Assembly: GCA_016235865.1 (NCBI GenBank)
Contig: JACRIK010000002.1
Coordinates: forward strand, 7,520 to 71,519
Reading direction: 5' to 3'
Length of the DNA: 64,000 nt
Source: Planctomycetota bacterium
GTDB taxonomy: Bacteria > Planctomycetota > MHYJ01 > JACQXL01
Below, piece by piece: positions 12,904-39,185 of this stretch. The translations under genes and the position numbers were made by a program. Below the pieces are notes generated by a model. The model was not told the origin of the DNA and ran no database searches. It saw only the letters and a list, made by a program, of their open reading frames with translations. Position 1 is the first letter of the stretch. Every line of letters begins with the position of its first letter.

Positions 12904-12932
12904 TTGACAGCGCCGAATTTGTTTGATACTGT
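12904..12932 (+). promoter_or_regulatory. sigma70-type promoter of the iscS-trxB-radical SAM operon
   Basis: TTGACA-N17-TACTGT with TG extended -10. Confidence 0.6.
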
Positions 12933-12954
12933 TGCGATTACAGGAGAATTGAGT

Positions 12955-14130: not shown

Positions 14131-14136
14131 TAACAG

Positions 14137-15072
14137 ATGGTTTATGATATTATAATAGTTGGCGGAGGTCCGGCTGGTTTGACCGCGGGAATCTATGCTA
14201 CTAGGGCGTTAATGAAGACTTTGCTTATGGAGAGAATAGCGCCAGGCGGCCTAGTCATCACTACCGAAAAAGTGGAAAATTTCCCGGGTTTTGCTGAGGG
14301 GGTTAATGGTTACGAGTTGATGGAACAGATGATAAAGCAGGCTGGTAAATTCGGATTGGAGACAATATCGGAAGAAGTGATAAGCATTAGCCAAAAAGAT
14401 AATATTTTTTATATCAAGACGGCATCACGGGAATATCAGGCGTTAAGCGTGATTATTGCCAGCGGAACGATTTATCGCAATTTGGGCGTGGAGAAGGAGC
14501 AGGCATTCATAGGACGTGGGATTTCATATTGTGCCACATGCGATGCTCCTTTATTCAGGAATAAAGAGGTGGTGGTGGTGGGTGGCGGCGATGCAGCGAT
14601 TGAGGAATCGTTATTTTTGACCAAGTTTGTCAGTAAGGTTTACTTGGTTCATCGCAGGGATAAATTACGAGCCAGTGCCATTTTGCAGGAACGGACTAAA
14701 CAGAATCCCAAAATAGAATTTATCTGGAATTCCGTAATTAGCAGGATATACGGGAATGATAAGATAGGGAAAGTTACTATAAAAAATGTTTTTGATAACA
14801 GTGAACGTGAGTTAAATATTGACGGAATATTTGTATTTATCGGTTTTGTGCCGAACACTGGCTTCCTTGATAGTTTTGTAGAACTAGATAAAGAAGGATA
14901 TGTGGTTACAGATTCTGGGATGAAGACCTCCCGTGAAGGAATGTTTGCCGCCGGAGATGTGCGCAGTAACACACTCAGGCAGATCATTACCGCTTGTGGC
15001 GATGGGGCTCGAGCTGCGATTTCAGCGCAACACTTTGTTGAGAACCTTAAAGCCACCAGATACAAGTCCTGA
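14137..15072 (+). CDS. trxB: thioredoxin-disulfide reductase
   Basis: GGGPAGLTA, CATCD, GGGDAA, FAAGDV. Confidence 0.97.
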   Translation: MVYDIIIVGGGPAGLTAGIYATRALMKTLLMERIAPGGLVITTEKVENFPGFAEGVNGYELMEQMIKQAGKFGLETISEEVISISQKDNIFYIKTASREYQALSVIIASGTIYRNLGVEKEQAFIGRGISYCATCDAPLFRNKEVVVVGGGDAAIEESLFLTKFVSKVYLVHRRDKLRASAILQERTKQNPKIEFIWNSVISRIYGNDKIGKVTIKNVFDNSERELNIDGIFVFIGFVPNTGFLDSFVELDKEGYVVTDSGMKTSREGMFAAGDVRSNTLRQIITACGDGARAAISAQHFVENLKATRYKS

Positions 15073-15078
15073 TATTGT

Positions 15079-16080
15079 ATGCATCAAGCTCTGTATTTTG
15101 AGCAATTAGACACCAAAAAAGTCAGGTGTCAACTCTGTCCTCATAATTGTATTATATCTGACGGTAAAATCGGTATCTGCAGGCAACGAAGGAATGTAGG
15201 TGGTATTTTATATTCCCTGAATTATGGTGGGGTAGTTTCCGTCAACCTTGACCCGATGGAAAAGAAGCCGCTATATCATTTTTATCCCGGAGAAAAAATC
15301 TTGTCTATTGGAACGAATGGATGTAATTTGAGTTGCCAATTCTGCCAAAACTGGTCAATATCACAGGAAGATAGTTTGGCTATAAATACATCCCCGGATG
15401 AAATAATAAAATTAGCCAAGCGTTATAAGACGAAATTTATTGCTTACACCTACAATGAACCTTTTATCTGGTATGAATATGTTCTGGATACGGCAAAGCT
15501 AGCGAAATCAAAGGGGTTGATAAATGTTTTGGTAACTAATGGTTATGTTAATCCGGGGCCGCTAAATGAAATACTGCCTTATATTTCAGCGATGAATATA
15601 GACATAAAGAGCATTAAAGATGATTTTTATCGCAAATTATGCAAGGCAAAATTAGGACCGGTGTTGGAAAGTGCTAAAGCAGCCCGGGGAAAAGTCCACG
15701 TTGAAATTACCAATTTGGTTATTACAGGTGAGAATGATAAGGCAGATGAATTGGATGGCGCCTCCAAATGGATTGCGGATAATTTAGGCCGTGATACACC
15801 GCTGCACTTTTCGGCCTATTTCCCGTCATATAAATTAGATAATCCAACTACTACTACTGAAACGCTTCTTAAGGCATACCAAATCGCCAGAAAATATCTA
15901 TATTTCGTGTACCTCGGTAATGTAACGGGAATTGAAAAGGGACGAGATACAGTTTGCTACAAATGTGATAATAAATTAGTGGAAAGAACAGGATATCAGA
16001 TACGAATATCAGGATTAACGTCTAGTGGACAGTGTAGCCAATGTGGTAACAGGAATAATATAAAATTATCAAGTGATTGA
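15079..16080 (+). CDS. AmmeMemoRadiSam-system radical SAM enzyme (PFL-activase-like)
   Basis: N-terminal CQLCPHNC...GIC, DPMEKKPLYHFYPG, GCNLSCQFCQNW, YTYNEP, C-terminal CYKC/CSQC. Confidence 0.92.
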   Translation: MHQALYFEQLDTKKVRCQLCPHNCIISDGKIGICRQRRNVGGILYSLNYGGVVSVNLDPMEKKPLYHFYPGEKILSIGTNGCNLSCQFCQNWSISQEDSLAINTSPDEIIKLAKRYKTKFIAYTYNEPFIWYEYVLDTAKLAKSKGLINVLVTNGYVNPGPLNEILPYISAMNIDIKSIKDDFYRKLCKAKLGPVLESAKAARGKVHVEITNLVITGENDKADELDGASKWIADNLGRDTPLHFSAYFPSYKLDNPTTTTETLLKAYQIARKYLYFVYLGNVTGIEKGRDTVCYKCDNKLVERTGYQIRISGLTSSGQCSQCGNRNNIKLSSD

Positions 16081-18957
16081 TTAAATGGGGCGTTTTACAT
16101 GGCGCCGTTTCACTAACCGATAGCCGATTAGTAATAATCCCGCACCGATAACCAATATTAATACAGGGTATCTGATGGTATAAATTATAGGTGTTAATGC
16201 GAGGCGAACTGCCGACGCCTGTAACGGGGTATCTTTAAGATGATTAGCAATAGGCGGGCTTACCCGATAGTACCAATTAACGAATTTACTTCCTAATTTA
16301 TTAGTCAGAAGATATCTATCCCTAAAATTCCTTAGGGTAACGACGTTAGGATGCATTGGATTTCCATATACGGCGGTAGCAATAAAGCAACTTTGCCTGA
16401 AGGCATTAGGGTCAAAATAAGCCAGAGAACTGCTGCCGGCAACTATGCCGTCGCCTTCGTTATAGGTGTCGTTTCCGGGCGGCGTCGGTAGTGATTGATT
16501 TGAAAAGCCACCCGACAGGTCAGCGCTGATTCTGGTAACAAAGATATCGCCAAAGCCGTTATAGGAAGTGTCATAAGCAATACTTGTTCCGGTTGTCGGC
16601 CAGGTTGGATAGGCCCCATCGCCGGCGATGCCTACAAATATCATATTACCGGCATTATCAGGTCTTATGCAGTATGCCGTATCCAAATATTGCCCGCCGA
16701 CCATTGTAGAGGCGTTGAGGATAGAAAGTGTTTCGTTAAATGAACAGACAAATACATCGCCGGCTCCGCCGGTATTGGTGATTGAAAAAGCATCTGATGT
16801 AGTAGGAAAGTCGGATGAATTGGTTTGTCCGCAGATGTAAATTTTATTGTTATTACCGCCGGTGCTGATAGAGTATGCCGTTTCGGAATTTACTCCGCCA
16901 ATCCAAGTGGATTGAAGAAGTTGGGTAAGATTAGCGGTAAGTCTTGAGACGAAAACATCTTGAGCGCCAAGGCCCGGTTGGGTGGCGCCGTAAGGATTCC
17001 ATGACTGGTAAGGATCGGGAGGGGTGCCAAAACTTGTGGTCGGGAAAAGCGGCGAACCGGTTATTCCGGTAACATAGACGGTTTGTTCGCCGGCTATCGG
17101 AGCGCCTAATGTAATGCCATAGCCGATTTCCTGGCCAACACGCCCCAGATAAGTAGAGGAACGGAGTGTCCTCAAGTCATTGGTAAAACGGGATATAAAA
17201 GCATCTGAGGCGCCACTCGTGTCAATTGCTATGTCGTAGGCAGATGTTAATGTTCCTTCGCCTAAGGTGGGGAAGGGGGGGCTGCCCGCAGTGGTAAAGC
17301 CGGTAATATAAACATTGCCGAGTTCATCAAGGGCAATGGCATTTCCAATATCATTGCCCGGTATCGTCGGAGAAGCGGGCGCTCCGCCTATAAATAGGCT
17401 CGCAAAATAGAATTCTCCCTGTCGTCCGGTAAATCCTGAAAGGTTATTGTTAAACTTGGCAACAAAGACGTCATTACCGCCGTTATAATTGATACTGGAA
17501 GAGCCGCTTGGATAATTTATTGAAACGTTTGTCGGGAAGGTATCGCTGTCGGTATATCCAACGACAAAGACATTATTCGAATCGTCTACAACAATGCCGG
17601 TGGCAGCATCGGCTGTTACGCTGCCTTGGGCTGTACCGCCCAGATACGTTGAAGCCAGTAGGGCGTTCAAGGAATTGCTGAGCTTGGCCACAAAGGCATC
17701 ATTTGGATTTACTTGTTGCCCCTGGACCGATGGTCCGTTATAAGAGGTGTCAAAGGCCGAAGGGGTAAATGGGCCGTTTGGCAGTATTATGGATGGTCTG
17801 TCGGTGGCGGTGGGGAATCCCGGTCCGGCAAAACCGCACACAAATACATTTCCTTGTCCGTCTAGTGTAATACCATAGGCACCATCAGAATTTGCGCTTC
17901 CGATAAAGGTGGAGGCCAGCAACGTGGTTAAGGTGGGGTTGAGCTTGCAGACTACGATATCATTGCTTCCGACATATACGGAGTTATAAGGAAGCGGGAT
18001 ATCAGGAGGAATTGGGGCAGTCGGGAAGTTATTGCTCCAAACAAATGTCCAGGGCGGAATGTAAACAAAAGAACCGGTTCCGAGTGTATATCCGGCGACA
18101 AATACGTTTCCGTTGGTTGGGTCAATAACTACTCCCCGCGCATAATCGGTGCCGAATCCGCCGATAAAGGTCGATGACAAAAGCGGGTCGATAATCAGGG
18201 GTAGCGTTTTATCATAATTACCTACCACAAAGCCATAAGTGGTTTTATTAATCAACCTGTAAGCGACCTCGACCGGTTTCCTTTCCCCGTTTACTTCTTG
18301 ATAGGCGATCGGGTGGGTAAATCCGACGCTTCTTTTACCGGCCTTTAATTCAAGCTCTCCTGCCTGATTCAGTGATAATTCTTCTGCGCCGGCCACAGAG
18401 AATTCTATGGATTCTGGTGTGCCGTCAGGAGTGATGATAAACAGTTTTTCTATATTCTTGGAGTTTGCCTTCAGGTTTAAGGTAATGCCTTTCCAGACTT
18501 CGCCCAAGGTAATAAGGTTGTATGACGGTATGTTACTGCGCCAGTTTTTCGGGTCATCGCCCAGGAAATAATTAACCGCGGTGGGCGAGTTTTCCAGGGC
18601 TTTTACTTGCGCTGTTTTATCTGTCAGCGGCGTTTCCTTCAGCGAAAATGTATAATGCCCTGAAAATGAGCCGTCCGGTAGGAGATAATCCTCAGCTCCA
18701 AAATAATCTTTTGGATTAACGATGGTATAAATTAATTCGCCCTTATCGGTAATAAAGACGGTGCCATTAATGGTCTGGATATAGAATTTGACTTCTTCAG
18801 ATTTTATCTGGCCTTCATTCTTTATAAAAGGCACCTGCATACCGGAGAGCGATTCTCTTTGGTCTTTTAACAGGACGCTTTGATTTTCAGCGCCTAACTC
18901 TGAATAGTATGAGAAGATCGCCAATAACAAAATAATATATATGCTAAGTTTACTCAT
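16081..18957 (-). CDS. secreted SBBP (beta-propeller) repeat protein with C-terminal CFI-box-CTERM domain
   Basis: signal peptide; FIKNEGQ...Y...PLIIDP N-domain; D.FV.K...L..STF.GG repeats; CFIATAVYG...LRNFRDRYL...YY..SP plus TM tail. Confidence 0.85.
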   Translation of the reverse strand: MSKLSIYIILLLAIFSYYSELGAENQSVLLKDQRESLSGMQVPFIKNEGQIKSEEVKFYIQTINGTVFITDKGELIYTIVNPKDYFGAEDYLLPDGSFSGHYTFSLKETPLTDKTAQVKALENSPTAVNYFLGDDPKNWRSNIPSYNLITLGEVWKGITLNLKANSKNIEKLFIITPDGTPESIEFSVAGAEELSLNQAGELELKAGKRSVGFTHPIAYQEVNGERKPVEVAYRLINKTTYGFVVGNYDKTLPLIIDPLLSSTFIGGFGTDYARGVVIDPTNGNVFVAGYTLGTGSFVYIPPWTFVWSNNFPTAPIPPDIPLPYNSVYVGSNDIVVCKLNPTLTTLLASTFIGSANSDGAYGITLDGQGNVFVCGFAGPGFPTATDRPSIILPNGPFTPSAFDTSYNGPSVQGQQVNPNDAFVAKLSNSLNALLASTYLGGTAQGSVTADAATGIVVDDSNNVFVVGYTDSDTFPTNVSINYPSGSSSINYNGGNDVFVAKFNNNLSGFTGRQGEFYFASLFIGGAPASPTIPGNDIGNAIALDELGNVYITGFTTAGSPPFPTLGEGTLTSAYDIAIDTSGASDAFISRFTNDLRTLRSSTYLGRVGQEIGYGITLGAPIAGEQTVYVTGITGSPLFPTTSFGTPPDPYQSWNPYGATQPGLGAQDVFVSRLTANLTQLLQSTWIGGVNSETAYSISTGGNNNKIYICGQTNSSDFPTTSDAFSITNTGGAGDVFVCSFNETLSILNASTMVGGQYLDTAYCIRPDNAGNMIFVGIAGDGAYPTWPTTGTSIAYDTSYNGFGDIFVTRISADLSGGFSNQSLPTPPGNDTYNEGDGIVAGSSSLAYFDPNAFRQSCFIATAVYGNPMHPNVVTLRNFRDRYLLTNKLGSKFVNWYYRVSPPIANHLKDTPLQASAVRLALTPIIYTIRYPVLILVIGAGLLLIGYRLVKRRHVKRPI

Positions 18958-18994
18958 ATACGCTCATTCCTCTTTTCTGAACTATTATACCCGC

Positions 18995-21943
18995 TTAAGC
19001 TTGAAAGGTTGCGTTACGTCTTAACTTAAGGGCTAATAACCATCCGGATAGCAACATTAGTATTATAACTGCGATTGCCGTTAAAACAGGATATCTTATA
19101 GTATATACTATCGGTGATAAGGCGGTTTTAACCAGGGATGCCTGAAATGGCGAATGTTTAAGATGTTCAGCAATAGGCGGGCTGATTTTATAGTACCACC
19201 TGACAAGGTGTCTTCCGGCGTGATTGGTCAAAAGACGGTTATCCCTGAATTTCTTTAATGTTAGAACGTTAGGATGAGTCGGGCTGCCGTAAACCGCTGT
19301 GGCGATAAAACATTGCCCGAGGGGCTTGGTGAAGGCATCAGGTCCGAACAACATCCCTCCGCTGCTCCCGCTGGTTAGTAAGGGGTCGACCTCTACGATA
19401 AATTGATATACCGGCGTCCAACTTACCCGGCCTGAACCATCCGACGCCACTATATACCAATAGTAAGATGTTTCATAGTTGACCGAAGGGACATAGGTTG
19501 AATCCGGTCCGGTATAAATCAGAGTTAACGGGTAAGCGTCAGTTGAGAGATAAACCCAGTAGGTTATCGTTCCCAGGGCATTTGAAGGCGCTAACCATTG
19601 TAATATCGGCGGGTTCGCTACGTTAGGGGATAGGTTAAGCGGAAAACTAATAATCGGTTCAGCCAAGGCAGATGTGGTTGCTGCCGTGCCACTCCGCAAA
19701 TTAGGTGTTATCCGGCAGACAAAAATATCGCCGGCGGCTGTATAGGCGCTTCCGTTATAAGGGGTAGTAATGGGATTGGAAAGCGGGAAGTCGGAAGAGG
19801 TGGTAACGGCTGTCACCAGCATATTGCCTGAATTATCGGCTGTTATTCCGGCCCTGCCCGGGACGGTCGTGCCGGATTCTGCGCCGGAGCCTCCCAGGTA
19901 AGTGGAAGCCACCAGGATAAGCTCACTATCCAGGCGGGCGACAAAGATATCCGATGTCCCTCCGATTGTGTTATCAACCGGAAGCGGATTGGCCGGATAA
20001 ATGGGGAAGTTCAGGGATGCGGTGTAGCCGGTCAAGTAAATCTGCCCGGCAAAAGGCGCCACCGCAATAGACCAGCCGATGTCCGAACCGCTGCCTCCCA
20101 TGTATCTCGAACCGATAATATTCAGTGACGGACTTAATTTAGTGACAAAGGCGTCTATTACTCCGACAAAGATCGTGCTGCCGCCGGTAAAGCTAATAGG
20201 AAAATTCAAGGAATTCGTCTCGCCGGTTATATGGATATTATTGGCCCGGCCTACCGCAATACCATAGCCGACGTCGTATAGCGTCCCTCCGAATCTGGTG
20301 GAATACAAAGTAGACGTCAGGCTGTTAGTGAACTTGGTGACGAATACGTCAGACGAGCCAATCTGAGCCACCAGGGGCACGGTCGGGAAATCAGGTGAAA
20401 GAGTCCCGCCGGTGACTATCACATTATCGGCAGAATCAGTAGCTATCCCGAAGCAGATATCGGCCTGCGAACCGCCCAGGAAGGTGGAAGCAAACCCGGC
20501 GGTCGTAAGGTTGTTATTGAATCTGGCCACAAAGCCTTCCTGAGTGCCGCCGCCATAAGTGGTATATGGACCGCCTACTGCCGGGAAATTAGAACTCGTG
20601 GTCAGGCCGCAGACAAAAACGTTATTATTCCTGTCCGTGGCTATCCCGTAACCTCGGTCATCGCCTGTTCCGCCTAAGAACGTAAAGGCAAATCCGGCTG
20701 AGGTCAGGTTATTATTCAATTTTGCCACAAAGGCATCCCAACCGCTAGCACCAGAACCATTGAAAGTGGTATCATAAGCGCCGGCTGTGGCCGGGGACCC
20801 GGGGGTTGCTGTGCTTGTGCCTACCGCGCCGGTAACAAAGACATTGCCTGAACTGTCAATCGTAAGGGCATATCCGTATTCAGACCTGAATGATTGAGAG
20901 CCTATAAAGGTTGATGCCAGAAGAGCCGAGATGTCGCTATTAAATTTGGAAACGAACGCATCAGTGGCAAAGGTATAAGATGCCTGGTAAACGCCGGCTG
21001 TGGTCGGATAACCCGATCCGGTATAACCCACGATAAAAACATTGCCTGCGGTATCTTTGGCAATGCCGTTGCTTACATCGGCCGAAGTGCCGCCGATATA
21101 AGTGGAAGCCAACAGCGGGTCAATAATCAGGGGAATTGTCTTGTCGTAATTACCCACGATAAAACCGTAAGTAGTTTTATTAATCAGTCTGTAAGACACC
21201 TCGACCGGCTTTTTTTCATTGGCTGTTTCCTGGTAGGCAAACGGCCGGGTGAAGTTTATCACCCCTTTGAGTGTTTTTATCTCCAACTCACCTGATTCGT
21301 TCAATGAGATCTGTTCTGCGCCATCCAGGGATATCTTGATGGATTCCGGATTGCCAGCCGGGCTGATAATGAAAAGTTTTTCTATATTCTTGGGGTTCGC
21401 TTTAAGGTTAACCGTAACGCCTTTCCACGCCTCGCCTAAAGAAATTAGGTTATAGGTGGGGATGTTATCGCGCGAGTTTTTTGGGGAATCAATTATGATA
21501 TAGTTCACGTAGGTCTGGGCGCGGCTTAATCCCCGGACATTAATGCCTGATTTGTCAGGATTGGTGACGAATGTTTCTCTGATAGTTTCAGATACATACT
21601 GGGCCGGCGAAGCCTCGGCGAAATCCAGATTATTCCGGGACAGAAGAATATCATTCTCAAAGCAAGCCGTTATGGCATCGGCTCCGATGTAATCCTTGGG
21701 GTAGAGGACGCGGTAAACCAAATCGCCCTTGTCGGTGATGAAAACCGTGCCGTTGAAGAGTTTGGTGTAAAATCTGACGTCATCCGACGCGATCTGTCCT
21801 TCATTCTGGATAAAAGGGATTTGGAGAGACGAGGCTTCTTTCCTGATGTTAATATCAGAATCCGATGCCGGGCTCTCCGCGTAGATAGAGGCGCCGGCCA
21901 AGATAATTATCGTCAGCAGTAACAAGGATAAACTCTGCCTCAT
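18995..21943 (-). CDS. second SBBP repeat / CFI-box-CTERM protein (tandem paralog) with extra FN3-like domain
   Basis: same N-domain and repeats; PILQWLAP...ITYWVYL...YYWYIVASD FN3-like segment; CFIATAVYG...LKKFRDNRL. Confidence 0.85.
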   Translation of the reverse strand: MRQSLSLLLLTIIILAGASIYAESPASDSDINIRKEASSLQIPFIQNEGQIASDDVRFYTKLFNGTVFITDKGDLVYRVLYPKDYIGADAITACFENDILLSRNNLDFAEASPAQYVSETIRETFVTNPDKSGINVRGLSRAQTYVNYIIIDSPKNSRDNIPTYNLISLGEAWKGVTVNLKANPKNIEKLFIISPAGNPESIKISLDGAEQISLNESGELEIKTLKGVINFTRPFAYQETANEKKPVEVSYRLINKTTYGFIVGNYDKTIPLIIDPLLASTYIGGTSADVSNGIAKDTAGNVFIVGYTGSGYPTTAGVYQASYTFATDAFVSKFNSDISALLASTFIGSQSFRSEYGYALTIDSSGNVFVTGAVGTSTATPGSPATAGAYDTTFNGSGASGWDAFVAKLNNNLTSAGFAFTFLGGTGDDRGYGIATDRNNNVFVCGLTTSSNFPAVGGPYTTYGGGTQEGFVARFNNNLTTAGFASTFLGGSQADICFGIATDSADNVIVTGGTLSPDFPTVPLVAQIGSSDVFVTKFTNSLTSTLYSTRFGGTLYDVGYGIAVGRANNIHITGETNSLNFPISFTGGSTIFVGVIDAFVTKLSPSLNIIGSRYMGGSGSDIGWSIAVAPFAGQIYLTGYTASLNFPIYPANPLPVDNTIGGTSDIFVARLDSELILVASTYLGGSGAESGTTVPGRAGITADNSGNMLVTAVTTSSDFPLSNPITTPYNGSAYTAAGDIFVCRITPNLRSGTAATTSALAEPIISFPLNLSPNVANPPILQWLAPSNALGTITYWVYLSTDAYPLTLIYTGPDSTYVPSVNYETSYYWYIVASDGSGRVSWTPVYQFIVEVDPLLTSGSSGGMLFGPDAFTKPLGQCFIATAVYGSPTHPNVLTLKKFRDNRLLTNHAGRHLVRWYYKISPPIAEHLKHSPFQASLVKTALSPIVYTIRYPVLTAIAVIILMLLSGWLLALKLRRNATFQA

Positions 21944-32065: not shown

Positions 32066-33136
32066 ATGAAACGCGGATTCATTTATCCGGCCATCGGATT
32101 ATTGCTGGCCTATTTCCTGATTAACAGCGTTGGTTTCTCCGATGAAGCCATGGCCAAGGCCTTTCTGGCCAAGGGCGACGAGGCCATGAAGCAGAAGAAA
32201 TACGACCAGGCCCTGGAATTATACCAGAAAGCCGTTGCTGAAGCCCCGAACCTGCCCGAGGCCTATCTCAAAATCGGCGAGACCTATTTCAAGTTAAACG
32301 ACCTGCCCAAGGGCCGGACCGCGTTAAAAAAATGCATTACTCTTATTGACGAAACCCCCAAGCCGTCTGAAGACCTGGTGAAACTCCGAAAGCGGGCCGA
32401 TGAAATGCTGGTCAATTCAGACGTGTTCCGCAAGGGCTACCGGGCCCTGCGACTTGAATACGCCAAGGAATTGATGGCCTTTGTAAAAAAAGTCCAACCC
32501 AAAGACAACGGCCTGGCCGAATCGGCATTGAAAAGAGTAATTGCGATTGAGAAAAACGACGAGGCCTCCAAAATGCTGGAAGACCTCAGGAAAAACCGCA
32601 TTATCACCACCTGGACGCCGCTGGTAAACGTCTCCGATATGACCCGGTGGTTCTGGTATGAGCCGGAGGAATGGGTGGCTGAAAACGACGAATTAACCTG
32701 CGACACGCAGGGAATCGCTTGCTCCGTCAACGGCGACGGTTGGGGCAAGGATAAATACAAGGTCTCGGTTGAATTCCGCGTCCTCAAGACCTACACCCCG
32801 CAATACTCGGCCGGGCTGGCCATTGCCTGGGCCAAGGGCTATAAATCCGTGGTCATCCAGGGGGAGGGCACCCTGGCCTTGATGAGTTACGGGTTGAGCA
32901 ACGCGGCCGGTGATTCGCGCAAGAACGAAATACTCAAGGCCGAGCCGCTGGCCGGCGTCCTGCAAAAAGACGACTGGAACAAACTCATGGTCGACGTGGC
33001 CGGCCAGAATCTCAAGGCCTATCTCAACGATAAACTTATCATCGATTATAAATGCGCTGACTCCCTGGAGGGCGGCATCGGGCTGACCGGCGAAACCGGC
33101 CGGTTCTTATTCCGGAACCTGAAATACATCAAATGA
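32066..33136 (+). CDS. secreted TPR + DUF1080-like (3-keto-disaccharide hydrolase fold) protein
   Basis: signal peptide; TPR (ALELYQKAVAEAPNLPEAYLKIG); DWNKLMVDV.G...AYLND; GGIGL...FRNLKY. Confidence 0.75.
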   Translation: MKRGFIYPAIGLLLAYFLINSVGFSDEAMAKAFLAKGDEAMKQKKYDQALELYQKAVAEAPNLPEAYLKIGETYFKLNDLPKGRTALKKCITLIDETPKPSEDLVKLRKRADEMLVNSDVFRKGYRALRLEYAKELMAFVKKVQPKDNGLAESALKRVIAIEKNDEASKMLEDLRKNRIITTWTPLVNVSDMTRWFWYEPEEWVAENDELTCDTQGIACSVNGDGWGKDKYKVSVEFRVLKTYTPQYSAGLAIAWAKGYKSVVIQGEGTLALMSYGLSNAAGDSRKNEILKAEPLAGVLQKDDWNKLMVDVAGQNLKAYLNDKLIIDYKCADSLEGGIGLTGETGRFLFRNLKYIK

Positions 33137-34248
33137 ATTACCAACGACTTTGTGGCTGGGCAGTGCTGGGCGTCCTGGGCGCAGTCTGCCTCAACGCCCT
33201 GCTCCGGGCCGACGAGCAATCCGCCGGGATATACCTGCAAAAAGCCCTGGAAGCGGTTAAGCAGAAAAACTATGTAGCCGCCCTGGAATTATTCGACAAG
33301 GCCGTCAAGGAAGCCCCGGACATGCCGGAGATATACTATGAGCGGGGCATGCTCTACTGGAAAAACAAGGAAATGTCCGAAGGCATCAGCGATTTAAATA
33401 AAGCGGCCGGGCTGATTAACGCCCTGGACAAGCCGAGCATGAACCGGAAAAACCTGCTCCCGAAAATCGCCGCCGGCCAGTCCGAATACAAAAAGCTGGC
33501 CGACGAATTTGACGCGCTCAACCAAAAATACATGGCCCGCGACCTGGCCCTGCTGGAACAGAACCAGGCCAATCCCGACCCTCTTTTGATAGATATCATG
33601 AACATTATCCAGCCCTTTATTCCGGAATCGATGAGAGAGCAATACAATACTCTCTGGACCAATATTTTCAGTGAAACCGGCAAGAAAATGACCCCGCTGT
33701 TTAACGGCGCTAATCTGGGGGACTGGGAAGCCGAGAACCCGAACTGGACCGTGGAAAACGGGGCCATCATCGGCCAATTCATGGACAGCCTACTGGTTCA
33801 CAAGCACACCGTCCAGTTAAACAGCGGCGCCTATGCGGTTTCGGCCAAGGTCCAGATACTGGAAGAAAATCCGCCTGATGTCAACGCCGGTATCCTGTTC
33901 GGCGGCCGCTTCGACCAGTTCCTGCTTTTCGGCGTCCGGTCCAACCGGGTGGAATTAGTCAAGTTCAGCATACAGCAGGATGTCAAGAATGACCGAAGGG
34001 TTTTAATGCCCAATGTCATTGCCAATTGCCCGCCGCCGGCCGGGTTTGACGCCAAACAGGTCAATGAGCTTATGATTATCGTGGACGACGACTTTGTGGA
34101 CTGTTACCTGAACGGCAAGCGCATCATGGGCAAAAGGTTTGCCGGCGGGGAAACCGGCGACCGGAAGAGTTTCTACGGCGCTCCCGGCCTGAGCGTGCTG
34201 CGCTGCAAGGCCCAATTCACCGATTTCAAATACCTGATTTACGAATAG
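33133..34248 (+). CDS. second TPR + DUF1080-like protein (tandem paralog)
   Basis: TPR; PLFNGANLGDWE...WTVENGAIIG typical of the DUF1080 start; FTDFKY end. Confidence 0.8.
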   Translation: MNYQRLCGWAVLGVLGAVCLNALLRADEQSAGIYLQKALEAVKQKNYVAALELFDKAVKEAPDMPEIYYERGMLYWKNKEMSEGISDLNKAAGLINALDKPSMNRKNLLPKIAAGQSEYKKLADEFDALNQKYMARDLALLEQNQANPDPLLIDIMNIIQPFIPESMREQYNTLWTNIFSETGKKMTPLFNGANLGDWEAENPNWTVENGAIIGQFMDSLLVHKHTVQLNSGAYAVSAKVQILEENPPDVNAGILFGGRFDQFLLFGVRSNRVELVKFSIQQDVKNDRRVLMPNVIANCPPPAGFDAKQVNELMIIVDDDFVDCYLNGKRIMGKRFAGGETGDRKSFYGAPGLSVLRCKAQFTDFKYLIYE

Positions 34249-34254
34249 CCGCCT
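34123..34254 (+). repeat. 132-bp direct repeat, copy 1 (3' end of the TPR-DUF1080 gene)
   Basis: 128/132 identical to 38402-38533. Confidence 0.95.
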
Positions 34255-34342
34255 GCTCACGCCCATCCCTTTACCGTTGCCCGGTAAATGAGTATGGCCT
34301 GCCCGAATGGATGTCTGGTCAGGCGGGTGTCCCGGAATTTCC

Positions 34343-34369
34343 GAACTTGAAAGAATTCAATTCTTCAAT
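34343..34369 (+). promoter_or_regulatory. RpoE/ECF-like promoter candidate
   Basis: GAACTT-N16-TCAAT upstream of the ECF sigma gene. Confidence 0.4.
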
Positions 34370-34453
34370 AATAATTAAATTCCCCGTGACTTTTTCGTTT
34401 CGGCTGTTACTATACTTATAGAGAGACACGGTAAGCAGTAATTAAGGAGCCAG

Positions 34454-35014
34454 TTGTTGATGTCAAATACCGAATGCCTTGTGCAGGGATTGCAACAAGG
34501 CAATGAACAATCTTTTACTACCTTGGTGGACCGTTATAAAACCTATGTCTATTCCGTCGCATATAACCGGGTGGGTAATTTCACGGATGCCGAAGAAATT
34601 GTCCAGATGGTTTTCGTGGAGGTGTTTAAGAATATCCGGAGTTTAAATGAACCGTTAAAACTGGCTCAATGGCTCCACGGTATTACTGACCGTGTTTCTC
34701 TAAACTGGCTCAGGAAATATCGTACGAAAACCATCTCTTTTAAAGAATTGGGAAATGAAATAGCCGAGGCGAAGTCCCATAATCCGATGGAAATTATTAA
34801 CGGCCAGGAGGAAACTGCCCGGGGGATAAAGAAGGCCATGGGCGTCTATAATTCACTGGAACCGGACCAGCGGGTAGTGCTTAATCTGAAATATATGGAA
34901 TCTCTTTCCTATGACGAGATAGCGAACCGGTTAGGCATTACCAGCGATGCGGTGCGGGGCAAACTCTATCGCGCCCATCTCTGCCTTAAACAAATTAAGG
35001 ATAGTTTAAAATGA
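34454..35014 (+). CDS. ECF RNA polymerase sigma factor (start may be ATG 34460)
   Basis: region 2 (LVDRYKTYVYSVAY, DAEEIVQMVF, QWLHGI) and region 4 (LEPDQRVVLNLKY...SYDEIANRLG...VRGKLYRA). Confidence 0.93.
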   Translation: MLMSNTECLVQGLQQGNEQSFTTLVDRYKTYVYSVAYNRVGNFTDAEEIVQMVFVEVFKNIRSLNEPLKLAQWLHGITDRVSLNWLRKYRTKTISFKELGNEIAEAKSHNPMEIINGQEETARGIKKAMGVYNSLEPDQRVVLNLKYMESLSYDEIANRLGITSDAVRGKLYRAHLCLKQIKDSLK

Positions 35015-35976
35015 CCTGTAATTTCAGTAACGAACACCGCAGTGACCGCGCCAGCGAACACCGCAGTGACCGCGCCAGCGAACACAGCAGTGACCGTGAG
35101 CATCCACTGGAGCGGGACAAATTGTTGGGCTATCTGGATAATGAGATAGATACCAAACAACGCGCGGAAATCGGATTGCATCTAAAGGGCTGTCCGGAAT
35201 GCCGAGATGAATTAGAGTCATTAAAAGAGGCGCAGACATTATGGCGCAGGACGCTGGGTCCGCACGCATTGGCGCCTGATTTTTATATTCGGGTAAAGAA
35301 CCGGGTATCCCGAACTGTTTTCCGCAGGTGGGCATTGAGATTTGCTGTCGCCGGCGCTGCGGCGGTCTGGATGTTAGCCGTCACCTTGGTGTTCTTATCA
35401 CCTTCCAAAGATAACCCGGTTCCCCAGGATTCAACCGCTTCTGTCGGCACCGGCGGCAATGAGATGGCAACCCGCACGGATAAACAGCCAATAGGTTTAG
35501 AACAGCCGATAACAGCCACCTCAATAACGGACTCTATCGCGATGCAGACCGAAAAAGACCACTTTAAAATCCTGCACCATAAACAACCGATGTTATCAAT
35601 CCTTGTCAAGATGCTTAAGAAGCAGGTTAGCAAGGGCGATAATGCCGACGTCAAAGAGTCAACGGCAATAGCCACCGCAGAACTAATCAAACTTCTGTCA
35701 GATAAAGATGACGAGATACGCGGGATTGCCGCCGCGACGCTTGGCGAACTTAAAGCCACGGAATCAATTCCGGAGCTGGTGAAGTTATTAAACGACAAAT
35801 ACGCCGGCGCGCGCGGCTGGGCCGCCATAGCGTTAACGGAACTCGGCGCTCAGGACAAGGTATCTCAAAATGCCATAGCGGATATAAAACTCATCCGGGA
35901 CAATAGCGACGAGGCCTATGGCGCCCGCGCCCAGGCCGCCTTGGAAAAATTAGGAATAGCGGACCACCATAAATAG
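35011..35976 (+). CDS. ZAS (zf-HC2) anti-sigma factor with TM helix and extracytoplasmic HEAT repeats
   Basis: LLGYLDNE...HLKGCPEC; TM FAVAGAAAVWMLAVTLVFL; HEAT (LIKLLSDKDDEIRGIAAATLGEL); ATGA overlap with the sigma gene. Confidence 0.9.
   Translation: MTCNFSNEHRSDRASEHRSDRASEHSSDREHPLERDKLLGYLDNEIDTKQRAEIGLHLKGCPECRDELESLKEAQTLWRRTLGPHALAPDFYIRVKNRVSRTVFRRWALRFAVAGAAAVWMLAVTLVFLSPSKDNPVPQDSTASVGTGGNEMATRTDKQPIGLEQPITATSITDSIAMQTEKDHFKILHHKQPMLSILVKMLKKQVSKGDNADVKESTAIATAELIKLLSDKDDEIRGIAAATLGELKATESIPELVKLLNDKYAGARGWAAIALTELGAQDKVSQNAIADIKLIRDNSDEAYGARAQAALEKLGIADHHK
35031..35096 (+). repeat. 24-bp in-frame tandem repeat (about 2.75 copies, EHRSDRAS)
   Basis: cgaacaccgcagtgaccgcgccag twice plus cgaacacagcagtgaccg. 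Confidence 0.92.
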
Positions 35977-36001
35977 TTTTATTAACCGAAAGGAGATTTC
36001 T

Positions 36002-37159
36002 ATGAGAAACAGGGCAGTAATTATTGGCGGTTCCATATTGGCGACCATACTGATAATTGCCGGCGGATGCTCGCAAACCTCTTTAACCACTGGGCAACCG
36101 GAGCCTTTGGCGAGCCTCGTCCTTCAGGGCGGGGAGCCGACCCAAACGGCGGCCGTATTAAACTACGATTTCATAGACCGGGGCGCCACTTCCCAGTCAG
36201 AGATGGAAGAGGTCATGGGCTCGGCTTTGGCCGGATACCTGATAGTCAACGATGGCTATCCCCGCTCAACGCTGGTGAACTACCTCTATCGGAATAAATG
36301 TTTTTATTTCCCGCTGAATACCGGCGCGCAGCCGGTCATCTTCAAATCACTCCAGAATAATCCCAAGGTCTGTTTCGCGGTTGACAAATACACCCAGTTG
36401 CACTGGTGGAGCGCTAATGTCTTCGGCCAGGCCGAGATAATCAAGGACCCGGCGCAAATTTCCAAGTGGCTTAAGGAATACGAAAAAGTCCTGGGCAAGG
36501 ACGGGTTTAATTACCCGGCTCCAAAGGATTTAGCCGGCACTGTTATCGTCAGGATTACGCCCGAGACCATCTCCGGCCGGAAGATGAACGACCCGGCGAA
36601 CCCCAATTATGCCGTGCGCCTGCCCTGGATAACCCCGTCGCGCGGGCCGGCTGATGATACCGTCGCGCCAAGGGACCTGCCGGTTGAGGTATCCGGCTCC
36701 ACATTAGCCAAAGAGGTATCGCTGGACGGAGTTGACCCCAAGGTGGTGGAATCAATCCTCAAGGGCGTCGGCGCCTGCCGGCTGAACATCGTAGATACCG
36801 AGTATCCCTACTCCATACCGATGAGCGTGATGTCTTATACCAACGGTAATGTCATCATGCACTCCAATAAAAAAGGCCAGAAGATGGACTGCCTCAGGGT
36901 CAACCAAAAAGTAAGTGTGGATTACCAGTGGTTCTGGAACAATTCCAATTGGATAGCCCTGAATTTAGAGGGCCATATAAATATCCTGGAAAAACCCGAG
37001 GACATGGCCAAGGCGCTGGGTATGGGCAATCCCCAGATGCTGGACCGGATGGCCCAAAGAATGGCTATCCTGGAATTCGTCCCGGAAAAAATATCGGCCC
37101 GGCAGCTGGAAATACCGCGCAGATGGTATTCGCAGATGCCCGGGACTAAAACAAGATAA
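36002..37159 (+). CDS. lipoprotein with two PNPOx/NimA-like split-barrel flavin-binding domains
   Basis: lipobox LIIAGGC; domain 1 DGYPRSTLVNY...QNNPKVCFAV...NVFGQAEII...RITPETISGRK; domain 2 ACRLNI...YPYSIPM...GQKMDCLRVNQKVSV...FVPEKISARQ. Confidence 0.75.
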   Translation: MRNRAVIIGGSILATILIIAGGCSQTSLTTGQPEPLASLVLQGGEPTQTAAVLNYDFIDRGATSQSEMEEVMGSALAGYLIVNDGYPRSTLVNYLYRNKCFYFPLNTGAQPVIFKSLQNNPKVCFAVDKYTQLHWWSANVFGQAEIIKDPAQISKWLKEYEKVLGKDGFNYPAPKDLAGTVIVRITPETISGRKMNDPANPNYAVRLPWITPSRGPADDTVAPRDLPVEVSGSTLAKEVSLDGVDPKVVESILKGVGACRLNIVDTEYPYSIPMSVMSYTNGNVIMHSNKKGQKMDCLRVNQKVSVDYQWFWNNSNWIALNLEGHINILEKPEDMAKALGMGNPQMLDRMAQRMAILEFVPEKISARQLEIPRRWYSQMPGTKTR

Positions 37160-37231
37160 TTGCGTCCCTAAAGGGACAAAGTTAAATCCCGTTCTGCCGT
37201 GATGTCGGGACGGGATAAGAGGAGGTAATCT

Positions 37232-38233
37232 ATGAATAGAACGATAACATGGGGTGTGGTAACTATGATAATCTGCCTGATTTACCTGGGCGTAACAGTT
37301 GCGGAAGAAAAGCCGGACGGGAAGGAATACAACCTGGTTTATCATGTAGAAAGCGGACAGAAGCGGCAATGCGCCTATGAACTCTCGGTTGCCGGAGAGG
37401 TCAAGGTGGTTACCTTTGGCCGGCATCCGGTAATGAGGTTTTCCAGCAAGATAGCCAGGACGATTAATGAACAAATATTAGAAGCCAAGAAAGACCCTGA
37501 CGGCAATATTAACAATCTAAAAATGAAGCGGGAATATGCCTCATCGGTCTTAACCGCCCTGGAGCCGGTCAAACCCGGTGATAATGCCGCGATGGAACCC
37601 GGGCCGGAGAAGAAAAACGAGAATACGCGGCCGGACGCGATTGATAAACAGACCCTGGAAATATCATACCAGGATGGCAATGTAAATATAAAGCCGGCCA
37701 GCGCCGCCGGGACAAAAGGCGGCAGTAAGCCAAAAGACGAATTATCGCCGGAGGCCCAGGCGTTAGTAACCCTGCACGATGGCAACTTCGCCCTTTTCGC
37801 GCCCAATAAGAAGGTGAAAATAGGAGATGAATGGGAAATCAAATCAGATGTGATATCCCAGGTGCTGGCGCTCAAAGACGGGCGGCCGATTCGTTATGTC
37901 CACAAATCGCCTGAGGTGGGAATGCGCTTTGACATACAGGATAACAGCGTGATAAAATGCGCCTTTACCGAGGTGGTGAAAATAGACGGTGTTGACTGCG
38001 CCAAGATTAAGTTGGAAGGCCAGATTGCCGCCCGGCAGGATGATATCCTGAATGCGCAGATAGCTGTGAACGGTTTTACCTGGCTGGCGCTCAAGGATGG
38101 CGCGGCGAAAAAAGTGGAACTGGACGGCGATATGAAGTTAAGCGGCGAATACCCGGGTCATGAGACGGATAAAGGTATGGCGCTCCGTTGTATTGTTGAA
38201 GGTAAAGGCAGGATGTCGCTGAAGACAAAATAG
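37232..38233 (+). CDS. hypothetical secreted beta-rich protein
   Basis: SD gaggagg; signal peptide MNRTITWGVVTMIICLIYLGVTVA; no recognised motif. Confidence 0.75.
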   Translation: MNRTITWGVVTMIICLIYLGVTVAEEKPDGKEYNLVYHVESGQKRQCAYELSVAGEVKVVTFGRHPVMRFSSKIARTINEQILEAKKDPDGNINNLKMKREYASSVLTALEPVKPGDNAAMEPGPEKKNENTRPDAIDKQTLEISYQDGNVNIKPASAAGTKGGSKPKDELSPEAQALVTLHDGNFALFAPNKKVKIGDEWEIKSDVISQVLALKDGRPIRYVHKSPEVGMRFDIQDNSVIKCAFTEVVKIDGVDCAKIKLEGQIAARQDDILNAQIAVNGFTWLALKDGAAKKVELDGDMKLSGEYPGHETDKGMALRCIVEGKGRMSLKTK

Positions 38234-38401
38234 GAATAACAGAATATGACAACCGAAAACAGGATGCACATCGTGGTGGTAATGCTTGAGATGTGGTCTA
38301 CGGCGGGCTGTAAATCCTAATGTTCTTGGTGTGCTGTGGGGGCGGGGAAATTAGTATTGCCAGCCCAGCACATTCCTTATGTGCTGTGGTGTCCCAAGAT
38401 T

Positions 38402-38533
38402 ATTATGGGCAAAAGGTTTGCCGGCGGGGAAACCGGCGACCGGAAGAGTTTTTACGGCGCTCCCGGCCTGAGCGTGCTGCGCTGCAAAGCCCAATTCACC
38501 GATTTCAAATACCTGATTTACGAATAACCGCCT
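38402..38533 (+). repeat. 132-bp direct repeat, copy 2 (orphan gene 3' end followed by a terminator)
   Basis: encodes the identical peptide IMGKRFAGG...FKYLIYE*; no plausible start or SD; followed by aaccgcct...aggcggtttttt. Confidence 0.95.
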
Positions 38534-38706
38534 CCAGGTTATACCGGATTGCGTCCGATTTTAGGCGGTTTTTTGACCGACCGTATTCCTTTGCCAAGAG
38601 ATACGGTCTGGGTTGATAACATTCGGCGCTCCGTATATGCTTATTGTTTTAGTAAGCTCACAAGAGACGGCGCCTGTTCGTATTTCGGATGCCGTTCGTT
38701 CGGTAA

Positions 38707-38934
38707 TCAAATGACATTCCTTTGCCCATCAGATGCCGCGCCTAAGGAATTGAATGGGGATGTAACAGGCGGATGGGGGTGGGGGGACTCCCCCCTGACG
38801 ATGTAACTTGTTATTTTATAATGGGTTCGGACAACAGAGTTAGCCGATTTTGGTGTTTTGGCCGGTTGATTTGTTTCGGCCATTGCCGATAAACTCAAGG
38901 CGCATACGCCGGCGATTACGGCTAATCTTTTCAT
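38707..38934 (-). CDS. small hypothetical secreted protein or gene remnant
   Basis: signal-peptide-like MKRLAVIAGVCALSLSAMA; 75 aa. Confidence 0.45.
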   Translation of the reverse strand: MKRLAVIAGVCALSLSAMAETNQPAKTPKSANSVVRTHYKITSYIVRGESPHPHPPVTSPFNSLGAASDGQRNVI

Positions 38935-38956
38935 AAACTTATTACAGTTAGGTTTA

Positions 38957-39035
38957 GGGATTGCTTCGTCGTCCCGTTGGGACTTCTCGCAATGACCGTC
39001 ATTGCGAGGTCGCCGTAGGTGACCGTGGCAATCTC
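38957..39035. repeat. GTCATTGCGAG REP-like element, copy 2 (permuted arm order)
   Basis: gggattgcttcg...ctcgcaatgac c gtcattgcgag...gtggcaatctc. Confidence 0.8.
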
Positions 39036-39185
39036 TAACTCAGGTATATTATTACCATATATAAACGAATAAAAGGGGTGGCCGGCTCACTTTATTTTTG
39101 GATTTTCCATTAAATCCCCTTTTTTCAGCGGGAAAAGAGGGGGGGGGTGGCCAAGTAAAATAAACAGATAAATATTATTTTCTAC

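Follow-up and report, generated by a model that had tools for sequence, protein, structure and literature searches.

A predicted sigma factor operon that separates a planctomycete DUF1080 protein gene from its terminator and is flanked by a 132-bp duplication of the gene's 3' end

The window (the whole stretch of DNA analysed, 64 kb in length) belongs to an uncultured groundwater planctomycete, and the locus studied consists of a gene pair, geneA and geneB, followed by a cassette of four further genes and a terminator-like hairpin, all on the same strand (Table 1). GeneA is an old tandem paralogue of geneB. The protein search returned a single orthologue of geneB among 5.8 billion proteins, and the alignment of geneB with protein P0002 ran over the full length, including the C-terminus, at 48-49%. 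The pair is kept in a sole relative (L001, from sample SRR29054603), whose contig stops 189 nt past geneB; those 189 nt are without similarity to the sigma leader, and the alignment of this 3' flank with both window flanks was not significant on the + strand. Searches of GTDB genomes and JGI metagenomes, with the single protein or an alignment as the pattern, gave no relative of geneB.

Table 1. Positions of the genes, repeats and other features of the locus in the window
Feature	Position	Strand	Basis
geneA: exported TPR + DUF1080 (3-keto-disaccharide hydrolase fold) protein, 356 aa	32066..33136	+	Pfam
geneB: TPR + DUF1080 protein, 371 aa, intact; 3' end duplicated	33133..34248	+	Pfam
R1: repeat copy 1, last 41 codons of geneB, stop and 6 nt (CCGCCT)	34123..34254	+	
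S_L: weak direct repeat on the inner side, 24 nt past R1 (motif GTAAATGAGTATGGC ... GGTGTCCC)	34279..34339	+	
Promoter and 5' leader of the sigma gene, conserved (88-93% identity with relatives)	34355..34453	+	
ECF sigma factor, sigma-70 regions 2 and 4	34454..35014	+	Pfam, NCBIfam
Anti-sigma factor: zf-HC2 (H-x3-C-x2-C), TM segment, C-terminal HEAT repeats	35011..35976	+	Pfam, NCBIfam
Exported protein (lipobox-like AGGC), two PNPOx-like flavin/F420-type split-barrel domains	36002..37159	+	Pfam, NCBIfam
All-beta exported protein of 333 aa; its family is rare, with 10 representatives in 1.8 billion	37232..38233	+	
S_R: inner repeat, copy 2, adjoining R2 without a gap	38341..38401	+	
R2: orphan repeat copy 2, without gene body upstream	38402..38533	+	
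Intrinsic-terminator-like hairpin and U6	38521..38575	+	

The Pfam and NCBIfam searches agreed with the original prediction that the cassette encodes an ECF sigma factor, a ZAS anti-sigma factor, a flavin-barrel lipoprotein, a secreted protein and no integrase. The sigma factor (PF04542, PF08281, TIGR02937) has Sigma70_r2 and r4 without r3 or r1, which is the domain composition of its class, and its orthologues in Planctomycetota MAGs were found at 83-89%, with further sigma homologues at 55-62%. The zf-HC2 domain of the anti-sigma factor (PF13490), with HLKGCPEC in the translation, places it among the ZAS proteins, and its start overlaps the sigma stop (ATGA). For the 333-aa protein no Pfam family was found, and a homologue, P0034, matches it at 61%; its predicted structure has a pLDDT of 83, and the fold search returned weak open-beta-sheet or lipid-binding-like matches alone (TM <=0.36, the best PDB match being at 0.36), with no fold assignment. 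The 333-aa gene of another genome, L005, was considered as an orthologue and rejected. Neither a tyrosine or serine recombinase nor a DDE transposase was found in the cassette ORFs on both strands (Pfam, NCBIfam and other domains), and no ORF of >=150 aa in the 64 kb had a recombinase domain, so that the earlier statement that there is no integrase was borne out for the cassette and for the whole window. The Rfam search over 30-42 kb gave no match. By its gene content, the cassette is predicted to be one operon, in which the anti-sigma factor, of ZAS type, is coupled in translation to the sigma factor and two exported proteins follow. Its most plausible role is a response to envelope or redox stress, since the PNPOx-like gene has rubrerythrin, ferritin, flavodoxin, rubredoxin and PFOR genes as its ancestral neighbours.

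The cassette is bounded by two copies of a repeat, R1 and R2, and re-alignment reproduced exactly the repeat that had been predicted, with its coordinates, 128 of 132 positions identical in direct alignment, an offset of 4279 and four silent differences. These differences, at 34125 (C/T), 34173 (C/T), 34209 (G/A) and 34248 (G/A, TAG/TAA), all fall on third codon positions, so that the translations of both copies are identical, and at each of the four the gene copy has G or C and the orphan copy A or T. They are spaced 36-48 nt apart, and the longest uninterrupted identity between the copies is 47 nt. The edges of the homology are abrupt: on the left, CAAG is common to both at 34116-34119 and is followed by three mismatches, and on the right the homology ends 6 nt past the geneB stop codon, which suggests that the duplicated segment is just enough to keep geneB whole. 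A 44-mer of the repeat occurred exactly twice in the window and in none of 100 shuffles, and the repeat is the sole one of >76% identity and >=35 nt within the 64 kb. The search for further copies of the 132-mer, which had been proposed as a check, yielded none beyond the two: a third copy is absent from the window, from four sequencing runs (X1-X4) and from JGI metagenome and IMG/VR contigs, the collections being searched with the exact 44-mer.

The terminator downstream of R2 indicates which of the two copies is the native one. It has a perfect 8-bp stem (AACCGCCU/AGGCGGUU) and U6, with a dG of -18.7 and a z of -2.3, and the 5' half of the stem (38526-38533) lies inside R2 while its 3' half (38563-38570) is unique downstream DNA; R1 is without the 3' half. 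Since the stem is thus split between R2 and unique DNA, R2 with the DNA downstream of it is, as read from the sequence, the native end of geneB. By the same geometry the ancestral state would have been the gene plus its terminator, which shows the 4.15-kb block at 34255-38401 as a putative derived insertion between geneB and geneB's own terminator, and this terminator is now predicted to serve the cassette operon. The original prediction had described the second copy as an orphan followed by a terminator, and the stem, whose first half is formed by the last 8 bases of R2, confirms it. It had also described a cassette integrated into a CDS: a derived, recombinase-free block with the duplicated gene end as its bounds is upheld by the terminator geometry, by the occurrence of the cassette genes elsewhere in relatives and by the lack of any recombinase domain, but the position within the CDS is not, as the insertion point lies equally well 6 nt past the stop, inside the terminator stem.

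Inside the block, next to R1 and R2, lie the two weaker direct repeats S_L and S_R, the similarity of which is moderately significant (p about 0.004-0.007). The S motif is also given as GTAAATKAGTATKGC ... GGTGTCCC. The motif was found in the relative L018 at the same distance (~170 nt) upstream of the sigma gene, and it is absent from the sigma locus of the Hainich MAG. The proposal that S is an ECF autoregulatory promoter is weakened by this Hainich locus, which is without S yet keeps the conserved 100-nt leader, and an 18-mer match to the motif in L019 was put down to chance. No inverted similarity was found between the cassette ends (p 0.26), and a transposon or MITE was ruled out, there being no inverted repeats and a duplication of 132 bp.

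The cassette had been presented as a coherent signalling cassette, a description which the comparison with relatives does not support: the block is instead a mosaic, made up of three or more parts without linkage to one another in those genomes. The sigma/anti-sigma pair lies behind an epimerase gene in the Hainich MAG and behind an aminotransferase gene in L018, and DNA homology with the relatives' sigma loci begins at the sigma leader, at 34355. The PNPOx-like orthologues (61-82%) lie between ferritin/rubrerythrin and PFOR genes in three lineages, and the gene is unlinked to sigma in every relative. The neighbours of the geneA-geneB pair and of the sigma pair differ in every relative, and the genomes of the group are heavily rearranged. 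By this comparison of gene order the cassette is not a conserved mobile unit but a putative lineage-specific mosaic with its genes elsewhere in relatives. The GC content and codon usage of the cassette are not foreign and make no outlier, which is uninformative because the relatives have the same GC, and the cassette proteins had no match in IMG/VR. Lnt was dropped as a yardstick of genome relatedness, the sequences being 27% identical and probably not orthologous.

We further compared the locus with Logan contigs (k=31) from the four runs, all of one groundwater study. The results showed that all four junctions (gene to repeat, repeat to cassette, cassette to repeat and repeat to terminator) recur independently in X1-X4, and that in X1 the repeat is collapsed to one node with a depth of 34x in comparison to ~20x in every flank (~1.7x), which indicates two copies per genome. 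Linkage across the 132 bp is given by the original assembly and by one low-coverage X4 contig (33945-34277), which spans R1 and both flanks with gene, R1 (C,C,G,G) and cassette at 0 mismatches. The SNP phasing of X3 contigs agrees, and one X2 contig has hybrid alleles, with T at 34173 and the copy-1 right flank. At the k-mer level the duplication is no assembly artefact. The mobility and excisability that had been suggested for the cassette found no backing: there was no skip joint in the X1-X4 contigs, 31-mer contigs being blind to an empty site, the repeat had no third context, the cassette is as deep as its flanks, and the JGI metagenome, GTDB genome and IMG/VR collections yielded no empty site. 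A circle junction was likewise found neither in the runs nor in these collections; in the run contigs such a junction shares all its k-mers with the integrated form. When cassette and flanks were compared by run shares in a search for cassette-less strains, X3 and X4 were too thin (shares 0.05-0.12) and give no evidence of absence; both contain junction or cassette contigs. There is no evidence that the block is still moving.

Tyrosine-integrase elements target gene 3' ends without disruption by way of a copy of the gene end at attP. The structure described here looks like a known kind, a small recombinase-less genomic islet, and the reading which we tentatively prefer is that of a decayed or trans-dependent att-flanked islet, similar to the cis-mobilizable elements (CIMEs), which entered through a gene-end mimic. 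The block would have entered by recombination at an attP-like site in which the 3' end of geneB was present as a copy, R1 and R2 would be attL and attR, and the recombinase would either have been lost, leaving a decayed CIME-like islet, or be encoded elsewhere. In the circular form the 132-bp core would have S_R on one side and S_L on the other, like arm-type sites, and RecA-mediated loss through the repeats, with their longest identity of 47 nt, would be rare but possible. This possible islet origin draws on the exact and unique repeat, the split terminator, the derived arrangement, the lack of inverted repeats at the ends, the presence of S_L and S_R beside both repeat copies, and the relative L001, which has the geneA-geneB pair with nothing like the sigma leader in the 189 nt behind it. 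According to a review of IMEs (PMC5704250), a 3'-end duplication which keeps the gene is the hallmark of integrative elements that target 3' ends; the bounding direct repeat (128/132) does include the 3' end of its target gene in R1, and the block agrees with the CIME definition of that review in its direct repeats and its lack of a recombinase. Against it stand the absence, in the block and the 64 kb, of the recombinase that a site-specific integrative element has of its own, the lack of an empty site, a circle junction or a third repeat copy in the window, the four runs and the collections searched, the native-like composition, the only moderate significance of S_L/S_R, with S missing from the Hainich sigma locus, the indecisive SNPs and the length of the repeat, which at 132 bp is more than twice the usual size of tyrosine-recombinase att identity blocks, 8-60 bp (PMC5704250). 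A variant which we consider improbable is a living recombinase-free regulatory cassette that uses the 132-bp gene-end mimic and the direct S arm repeats with an integrase elsewhere, as part of ECF sigma modules which hop between gene 3' ends in Planctomycetota; such hopping would account for the different upstream neighbour of the sigma pair in three related genomes.

A close rival to the att-flanked islet, in itself rather unlikely, is single-crossover homologous integration of the Campbell type, in which a circle, such as a self-ligated fragment from a close strain, carrying the 132-nt geneB 3' end was taken in by a single RecA crossover and no site-specific recombinase was ever involved. 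This yields the very topology observed, a direct duplication flanking the insert as in insertion-duplication mutagenesis, and it accounts for the missing recombinase, the long repeat and the native-like composition, while a synonymous divergence of ~3% (dS about 0.12) is what alleles from related strains are expected to show. It needs, however, a donor with the cassette already behind geneB as well as an illegitimate circularisation at 38401|38402, which moves the origin one step further back; neither such a donor nor a second allele was found in the four runs or any collection, and S_L/S_R are left unexplained. The original prediction had taken the silent-only differences as a hint at a functional incoming allele, and this argument proved weak, as the SNPs do not discriminate: under GC to AT decay of the orphan, four silent changes out of four have a p of about 0.04, and under the allelic model the observed G/C to A/T direction has a p of about 0.06-0.12. 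Decay is what an in-situ origin would call for, an unlikely route in our judgement, by which R2 started out as an exact copy of R1 and decayed afterwards, having arisen by a long duplication at a staggered break in the terminator with capture of foreign or translocated DNA or by replication template switching, or else being all that is left of a second geneB copy after deletion of its 5' part. At all four sites the expressed copy has G or C where the orphan has A or T, which is the direction of mutational decay in unconstrained DNA, and the rearranged state of the group's genomes would suit such an event, but the silence of all four changes counts against it by the p of about 0.04 given above. 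There is also no trace of DUF1080 coding upstream of R2, the identity collapsing at 38401, tblastx matches the 37-codon end alone, and a geneB paralogue is absent from the 5.8 billion proteins, the one orthologue excepted; a tandem paralogue remnant is disfavoured by this drop at 38401 and by the single homologue, as residual homology to the gene body was not seen. To our knowledge, a target duplication of 132 bp has no enzymatic precedent in bacteria. Very improbable is a mis-resolved two-in/two-out repeat, the true arrangement being geneB, repeat and terminator, with the cassette and its repeat on a separate molecule or locus. The 31-mer repeat node is indeed ambiguous with SNPs 36-48 nt apart, and the X2 hybrid contig (T at 34173, copy-1 right flank) points the same way, but bubble popping at a depth of 2.9x would be expected to produce such a contig, the X4 contig links gene, R1 and cassette with 0 mismatches and the X3 phasing agrees, the four flanks have equal depth of ~20x with the repeat at ~1.7x, and it is implausible that a 4.3-kb circle which has no replication gene would stay at exactly the chromosomal copy number.

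If the att-like reading is true, the locus would be a natural case of a stress-signalling operon added by recombination which restores the gene end and then stranded without a recombinase, in a phylum, Planctomycetota, whose mobile elements are barely described. Such an insertion can rewire transcription, since geneB's terminator passes to the incoming operon. As the evidence stands, it is an ordinary small islet with a mechanism proposed from contigs. The nearest counterparts are the CIMEs of streptococci, which are what remains of decayed ICEs or IMEs at the 3' ends of genes (PMC5704250), and with which it shares a small cargo without integration or transfer genes, direct repeats including the 3' end of a protein gene, and an intact gene; unlike them, it has a repeat of 132 bp instead of 8-60 bp, no known related integrase-bearing element that uses the site, no excision or accretion seen, an uncultured planctomycete as host, and as cargo a regulatory operon of genes that are chromosomal elsewhere in relatives. 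In the tyrosine-integrase islands at the 3' ends of tRNA, tmRNA or housekeeping genes, such as those at ssrA of Dehalococcoides (PMC3146451), the element's copy likewise restores the gene and the orphan end lies at the far border, whereas those islands have their integrase beside an att site, and their sister strains show empty sites or other cargo, neither of which was found here. Campbell insertion-duplication also places a direct duplication on both sides of the insert and is reversible by RecA, but it is a laboratory or plasmid phenomenon, and here there is no vector backbone, replication gene or known source circle. The cargo resembles other ECF sigma/ZAS operons in its sigma regions 2 and 4, its coupled anti-sigma factor with H-x3-C-x2-C and the adjacent exported proteins, and differs from them in the anti-sigma factor, which has HEAT repeats on the periplasmic side and a tandem repeat of 8 aa as an insertion.

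Alignment within the window confirmed that the 3' end of geneB, the second of two tandem genes for exported TPR + DUF1080 proteins, is present twice, as the copies R1 and R2, which are identical at 128 of 132 positions with an offset of 4279 nt. The four differences (34125 C/T, 34173 C/T, 34209 G/A and 34248 G/A, the last being TAG/TAA) all fall on third codon positions and are silent, as the original prediction had noted, so that both copies encode one and the same 41-residue sequence. Identity is lost abruptly at the left edge, where CAAG (34116-34119) alone is in common and is followed by three mismatches, and stops 6 nt past the stop codon at the right edge. A 44-mer of the repeat had exactly two occurrences in the window and none in shuffled sequence, and the repeat search of the 64-kb window found no further repeat of >76% identity.

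Features of the geneB locus (window coordinates)
Feature	Position	Description
geneA	32066-33136	exported TPR + DUF1080 protein
geneB	33133-34248	exported TPR + DUF1080 protein
R1	34123-34254	first copy of the 132-bp repeat
S_L	34279-34339	weak inner repeat; starts 24 nt past R1
ECF sigma factor	34454-35014	between the repeats
Anti-sigma	35011-35976	start overlaps sigma; zf-HC2 motif, HEAT repeats
PNPOx-like gene	36002-37159	exported protein, two PNPOx-like domains
All-beta protein	37232-38233	exported; very rare family
S_R	38341-38401	weak inner repeat; abuts R2
R2	38402-38533	second copy of the 132-bp repeat

The window sequence is present in four runs (X1-X4) of one groundwater-metagenome study, at ~20x in X1, and all four repeat junctions were found in independent Logan contigs, among which the repeat had no third flank. 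The X1 contigs merge both copies into a single node of 34x depth, with flanks at 20.4, 15.7, 20.5 and 19.9x, which indicates two copies per genome. A low-coverage X4 contig (33945-34277) runs from the gene through R1 into the cassette with 0 mismatches, and X3 contigs support the phasing of the R1 and R2 alleles. The junctions and the two-copy depth thus speak against the assembly error considered earlier, and the assembly at the repeat is very probably correct, although the SNP spacing of 36-48 nt exceeds the k=31 of the contigs, so that linkage across the repeat is not provable, nor an empty site showable, from them. One X2 contig (34126-34498) has T, the R2 allele, at 34173 but continues with the alleles and right-hand flank of R1, a hybrid pattern which is most likely due to bubble popping at 2.9x depth and may instead reflect gene conversion between R1 and R2.

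Judging from sequence, R1 is the genuine C-terminus of geneB; the sole geneB homologue among 5.8 billion proteins (P0002, 49%) aligns to the end and sits likewise in a pair with a geneA counterpart, geneA and geneB being old tandem paralogues. At the 3' edge of R2, AACCGCCU (38526-38533) and AGGCGGUU (38563-38570) pair perfectly over 8 bp as the stem of a terminator-like hairpin, which is followed by a U6 tail. The 5' arm of this stem belongs to the repeat and also ends R1, where unrelated sequence follows; the 3' arm is unique DNA present after R2 only. Because the stem is completed only after R2, and the chance landing of a duplicated fragment there would be a coincidence, we infer from this structure that R2 with its downstream DNA was the original end of geneB and that 34255-38401 (equivalently, 34123-38401) was inserted. 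No recombinase, transposase or relaxase domain was found in the four cassette ORFs, in those of the opposite strand or, across the whole window, among ORFs >=150 aa; together with the terminator geometry, this supports the predicted insertion bounded by a gene-end duplication and lacking a recombinase.

The rest of the window holds housekeeping genes (dxr, rseP, an aminoacyl-tRNA synthetase, smc, moeA and lnt) and no tRNA gene. A compositional outlier block lies at 12904-16080, where three consecutive genes (class-V aminotransferase/IscS-like, pyridine-nucleotide disulfide reductase and radical SAM) have GC3 of 0.34-0.46 versus ~0.6-0.7 in their neighbours. Two tandem genes of ~960-980 aa (DUF7948 + SBBP beta-propeller) at 16081-21943 share DNA stretches of 71-76% identity, offset by 2932 nt, which points to a tandem gene duplication of fairly recent date. 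The spacer downstream of R2 (38600-39110) contains short interspersed repeats and a CATTGCGAG-type palindrome; its depth in X1 reaches 30-70x, and a variant contig repeats 38634-38737. Its segment 38959-39109 matches the relatives' loci L002, L004 and L005 at 84-90%, and in L004 and L005 one such copy lies just upstream of the PNPOx gene.

The inner repeats S_L and S_R, which are in direct orientation (62 alignment columns), share G.AAAT.AGTAT.GCC.GCCC and GGTGTCCC at equal spacing, with p ~0.004-0.007 against both dinucleotide shuffles and random window segments, and a scan of the window at <=1 mismatch gave no further copy of their core motif. Contig L018 of a relative has the motif (1144-1166) ~170 nt ahead of its sigma gene, a spacing equal to that of S_L. 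The sigma locus of the Hainich aquifer MAG keeps the conserved sigma leader and lacks S, which speaks against S as an essential sigma promoter. Circularised, the block would read S_R, R, 24 nt and S_L, resembling arm sites around a core. S could be an arm-type or a regulatory site, a lead rather than a demonstration.

In relatives the cassette genes lie at separate loci. The PNPOx-like gene has 61-82% orthologues in groundwater Planctomycetota and in three lineages (L002/L003, L004-L007 and L011) has ferritin/rubrerythrin genes on one side and a pyruvate:ferredoxin oxidoreductase gene on the other; none of the three has a sigma factor close to it. The sigma/anti-sigma pair has orthologues of 83-89% amino acid identity, preceded by an NAD-epimerase in the Hainich MAG (L012-L017) and by an aminotransferase and a 480-nt spacer in L018; with geneB in the window (34355-35976), this makes three upstream neighbours in three related genomes. 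DNA homology to the relatives' loci covers 34355-35020 at 88-91%, including a leader of ~100 nt conserved up to 93%, 35125-35947 at 76-80% and 36150-37218 at 82-85%, and neither 34255-34354 nor 37232-38401 was matched in the sigma and PNPOx loci compared. These separate locations mark the arrangement of the block as derived, by sequence comparison a mosaic put together from three or more pieces and not a module, and the coherent signalling cassette first proposed was not borne out. Its GC content and codon usage are not unusual. The family of the all-beta protein has 10 representatives in 1.8 billion proteins, and its model is confident, yet no fold was assignable. The Lnt proteins of the window and of Hainich are only 27% identical.

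Over window 36150-37220, X1 contigs contain two more PNPOx-like sequences (~82-85% identity, ~19-26x), either same-genome paralogues or relatives of equal abundance, so that the cassette copy may be an extra paralogue. At the anti-sigma N-terminus (35031-35102), a 24-nt unit that encodes SEHRSDRA (CGAACACCGCAGTGACCGCGCCAG) forms a tandem repeat of three copies in frame. L018, the closest orthologue, lacks it at this site and has 2.7 near-identical units ~640 nt deeper in the gene (2519-2585), within a HEAT repeat and with GAACTC on the flanks; all Hainich contigs break at this second position. In X1 the repeat is found at ~5x genome depth with many different flanks, one contig linking it to a PNPOx paralogue; its behaviour resembles that of a coding minisatellite that is dispersed and keeps the reading frame.

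The block would form one operon, transcribed from the conserved leader and now ending at the former geneB terminator, whose products would be an ECF sigma factor, the membrane-bound ZAS-type anti-sigma that holds it and has its HEAT repeats in the periplasm, and two exported proteins. GeneB now has only a U-less hairpin at its end, which makes read-through into the sigma operon possible. The ancestral neighbours of the PNPOx-like gene (rubrerythrin, ferritin, flavodoxin, rubredoxin and PFOR genes) point to a role in redox or oxygen stress.

The silent-only differences had been taken as a sign of a functional incoming allele. The p value for four of four silent was 0.002-0.015 under free drift of both copies and 0.02-0.07 if orphan R2 alone drifts. 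All four have G/C in the gene copy and A/T in the orphan; with orphan decay by GC->AT transitions only, 45% of changes are silent and p = 0.04, and with two functional alleles the uniform direction has p ~0.06-0.12. The SNP pattern thus does not separate the models. The apparent dS is ~0.12. Nor did the proposed excisability find support, since in the X1-X4 contigs (k=31) cassette depth equals flank depth and no skip joint was found, with no sign of current mobility.

Integrative elements aimed at the 3' ends of genes can insert without disrupting the gene (PMC5704250). The best fit in our analysis would be entry of the block via a gene-end mimic of this kind; the recombinase would now be absent. 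This reading is favored because the duplicated segment stops just past the stop codon, geneB is restored, the repeats are direct with no inverted terminal repeats, and S repeats lie at both borders; it is weakened by the lack of a recombinase in the window and of any empty site, circle or sister element in the searched collections. The length of the repeat and the missing recombinase would both be explained by a close rival, a single homologous crossover with a circular DNA fragment that came from a related strain and bore the end of geneB; this however leaves unexplained an insertion that must have occurred earlier in the donor. Less likely is in-situ duplication, or R2 as the remnant of a full tandem paralogue as the original prediction had allowed, as no trace of the gene body precedes R2 and the protein search found no paralogue anywhere.

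Under gene-end-mimic entry, the identity block of 132 bp is longer than the usual 8-60 bp of att sites (PMC5704250), which also counts against this reading. With cis-mobilizable elements (CIMEs) the islet shares direct repeats around recombinase-less cargo and an intact target gene, and on this reading the block would be a CIME-like, att-flanked and recombinase-less islet, a kind of structure already known.
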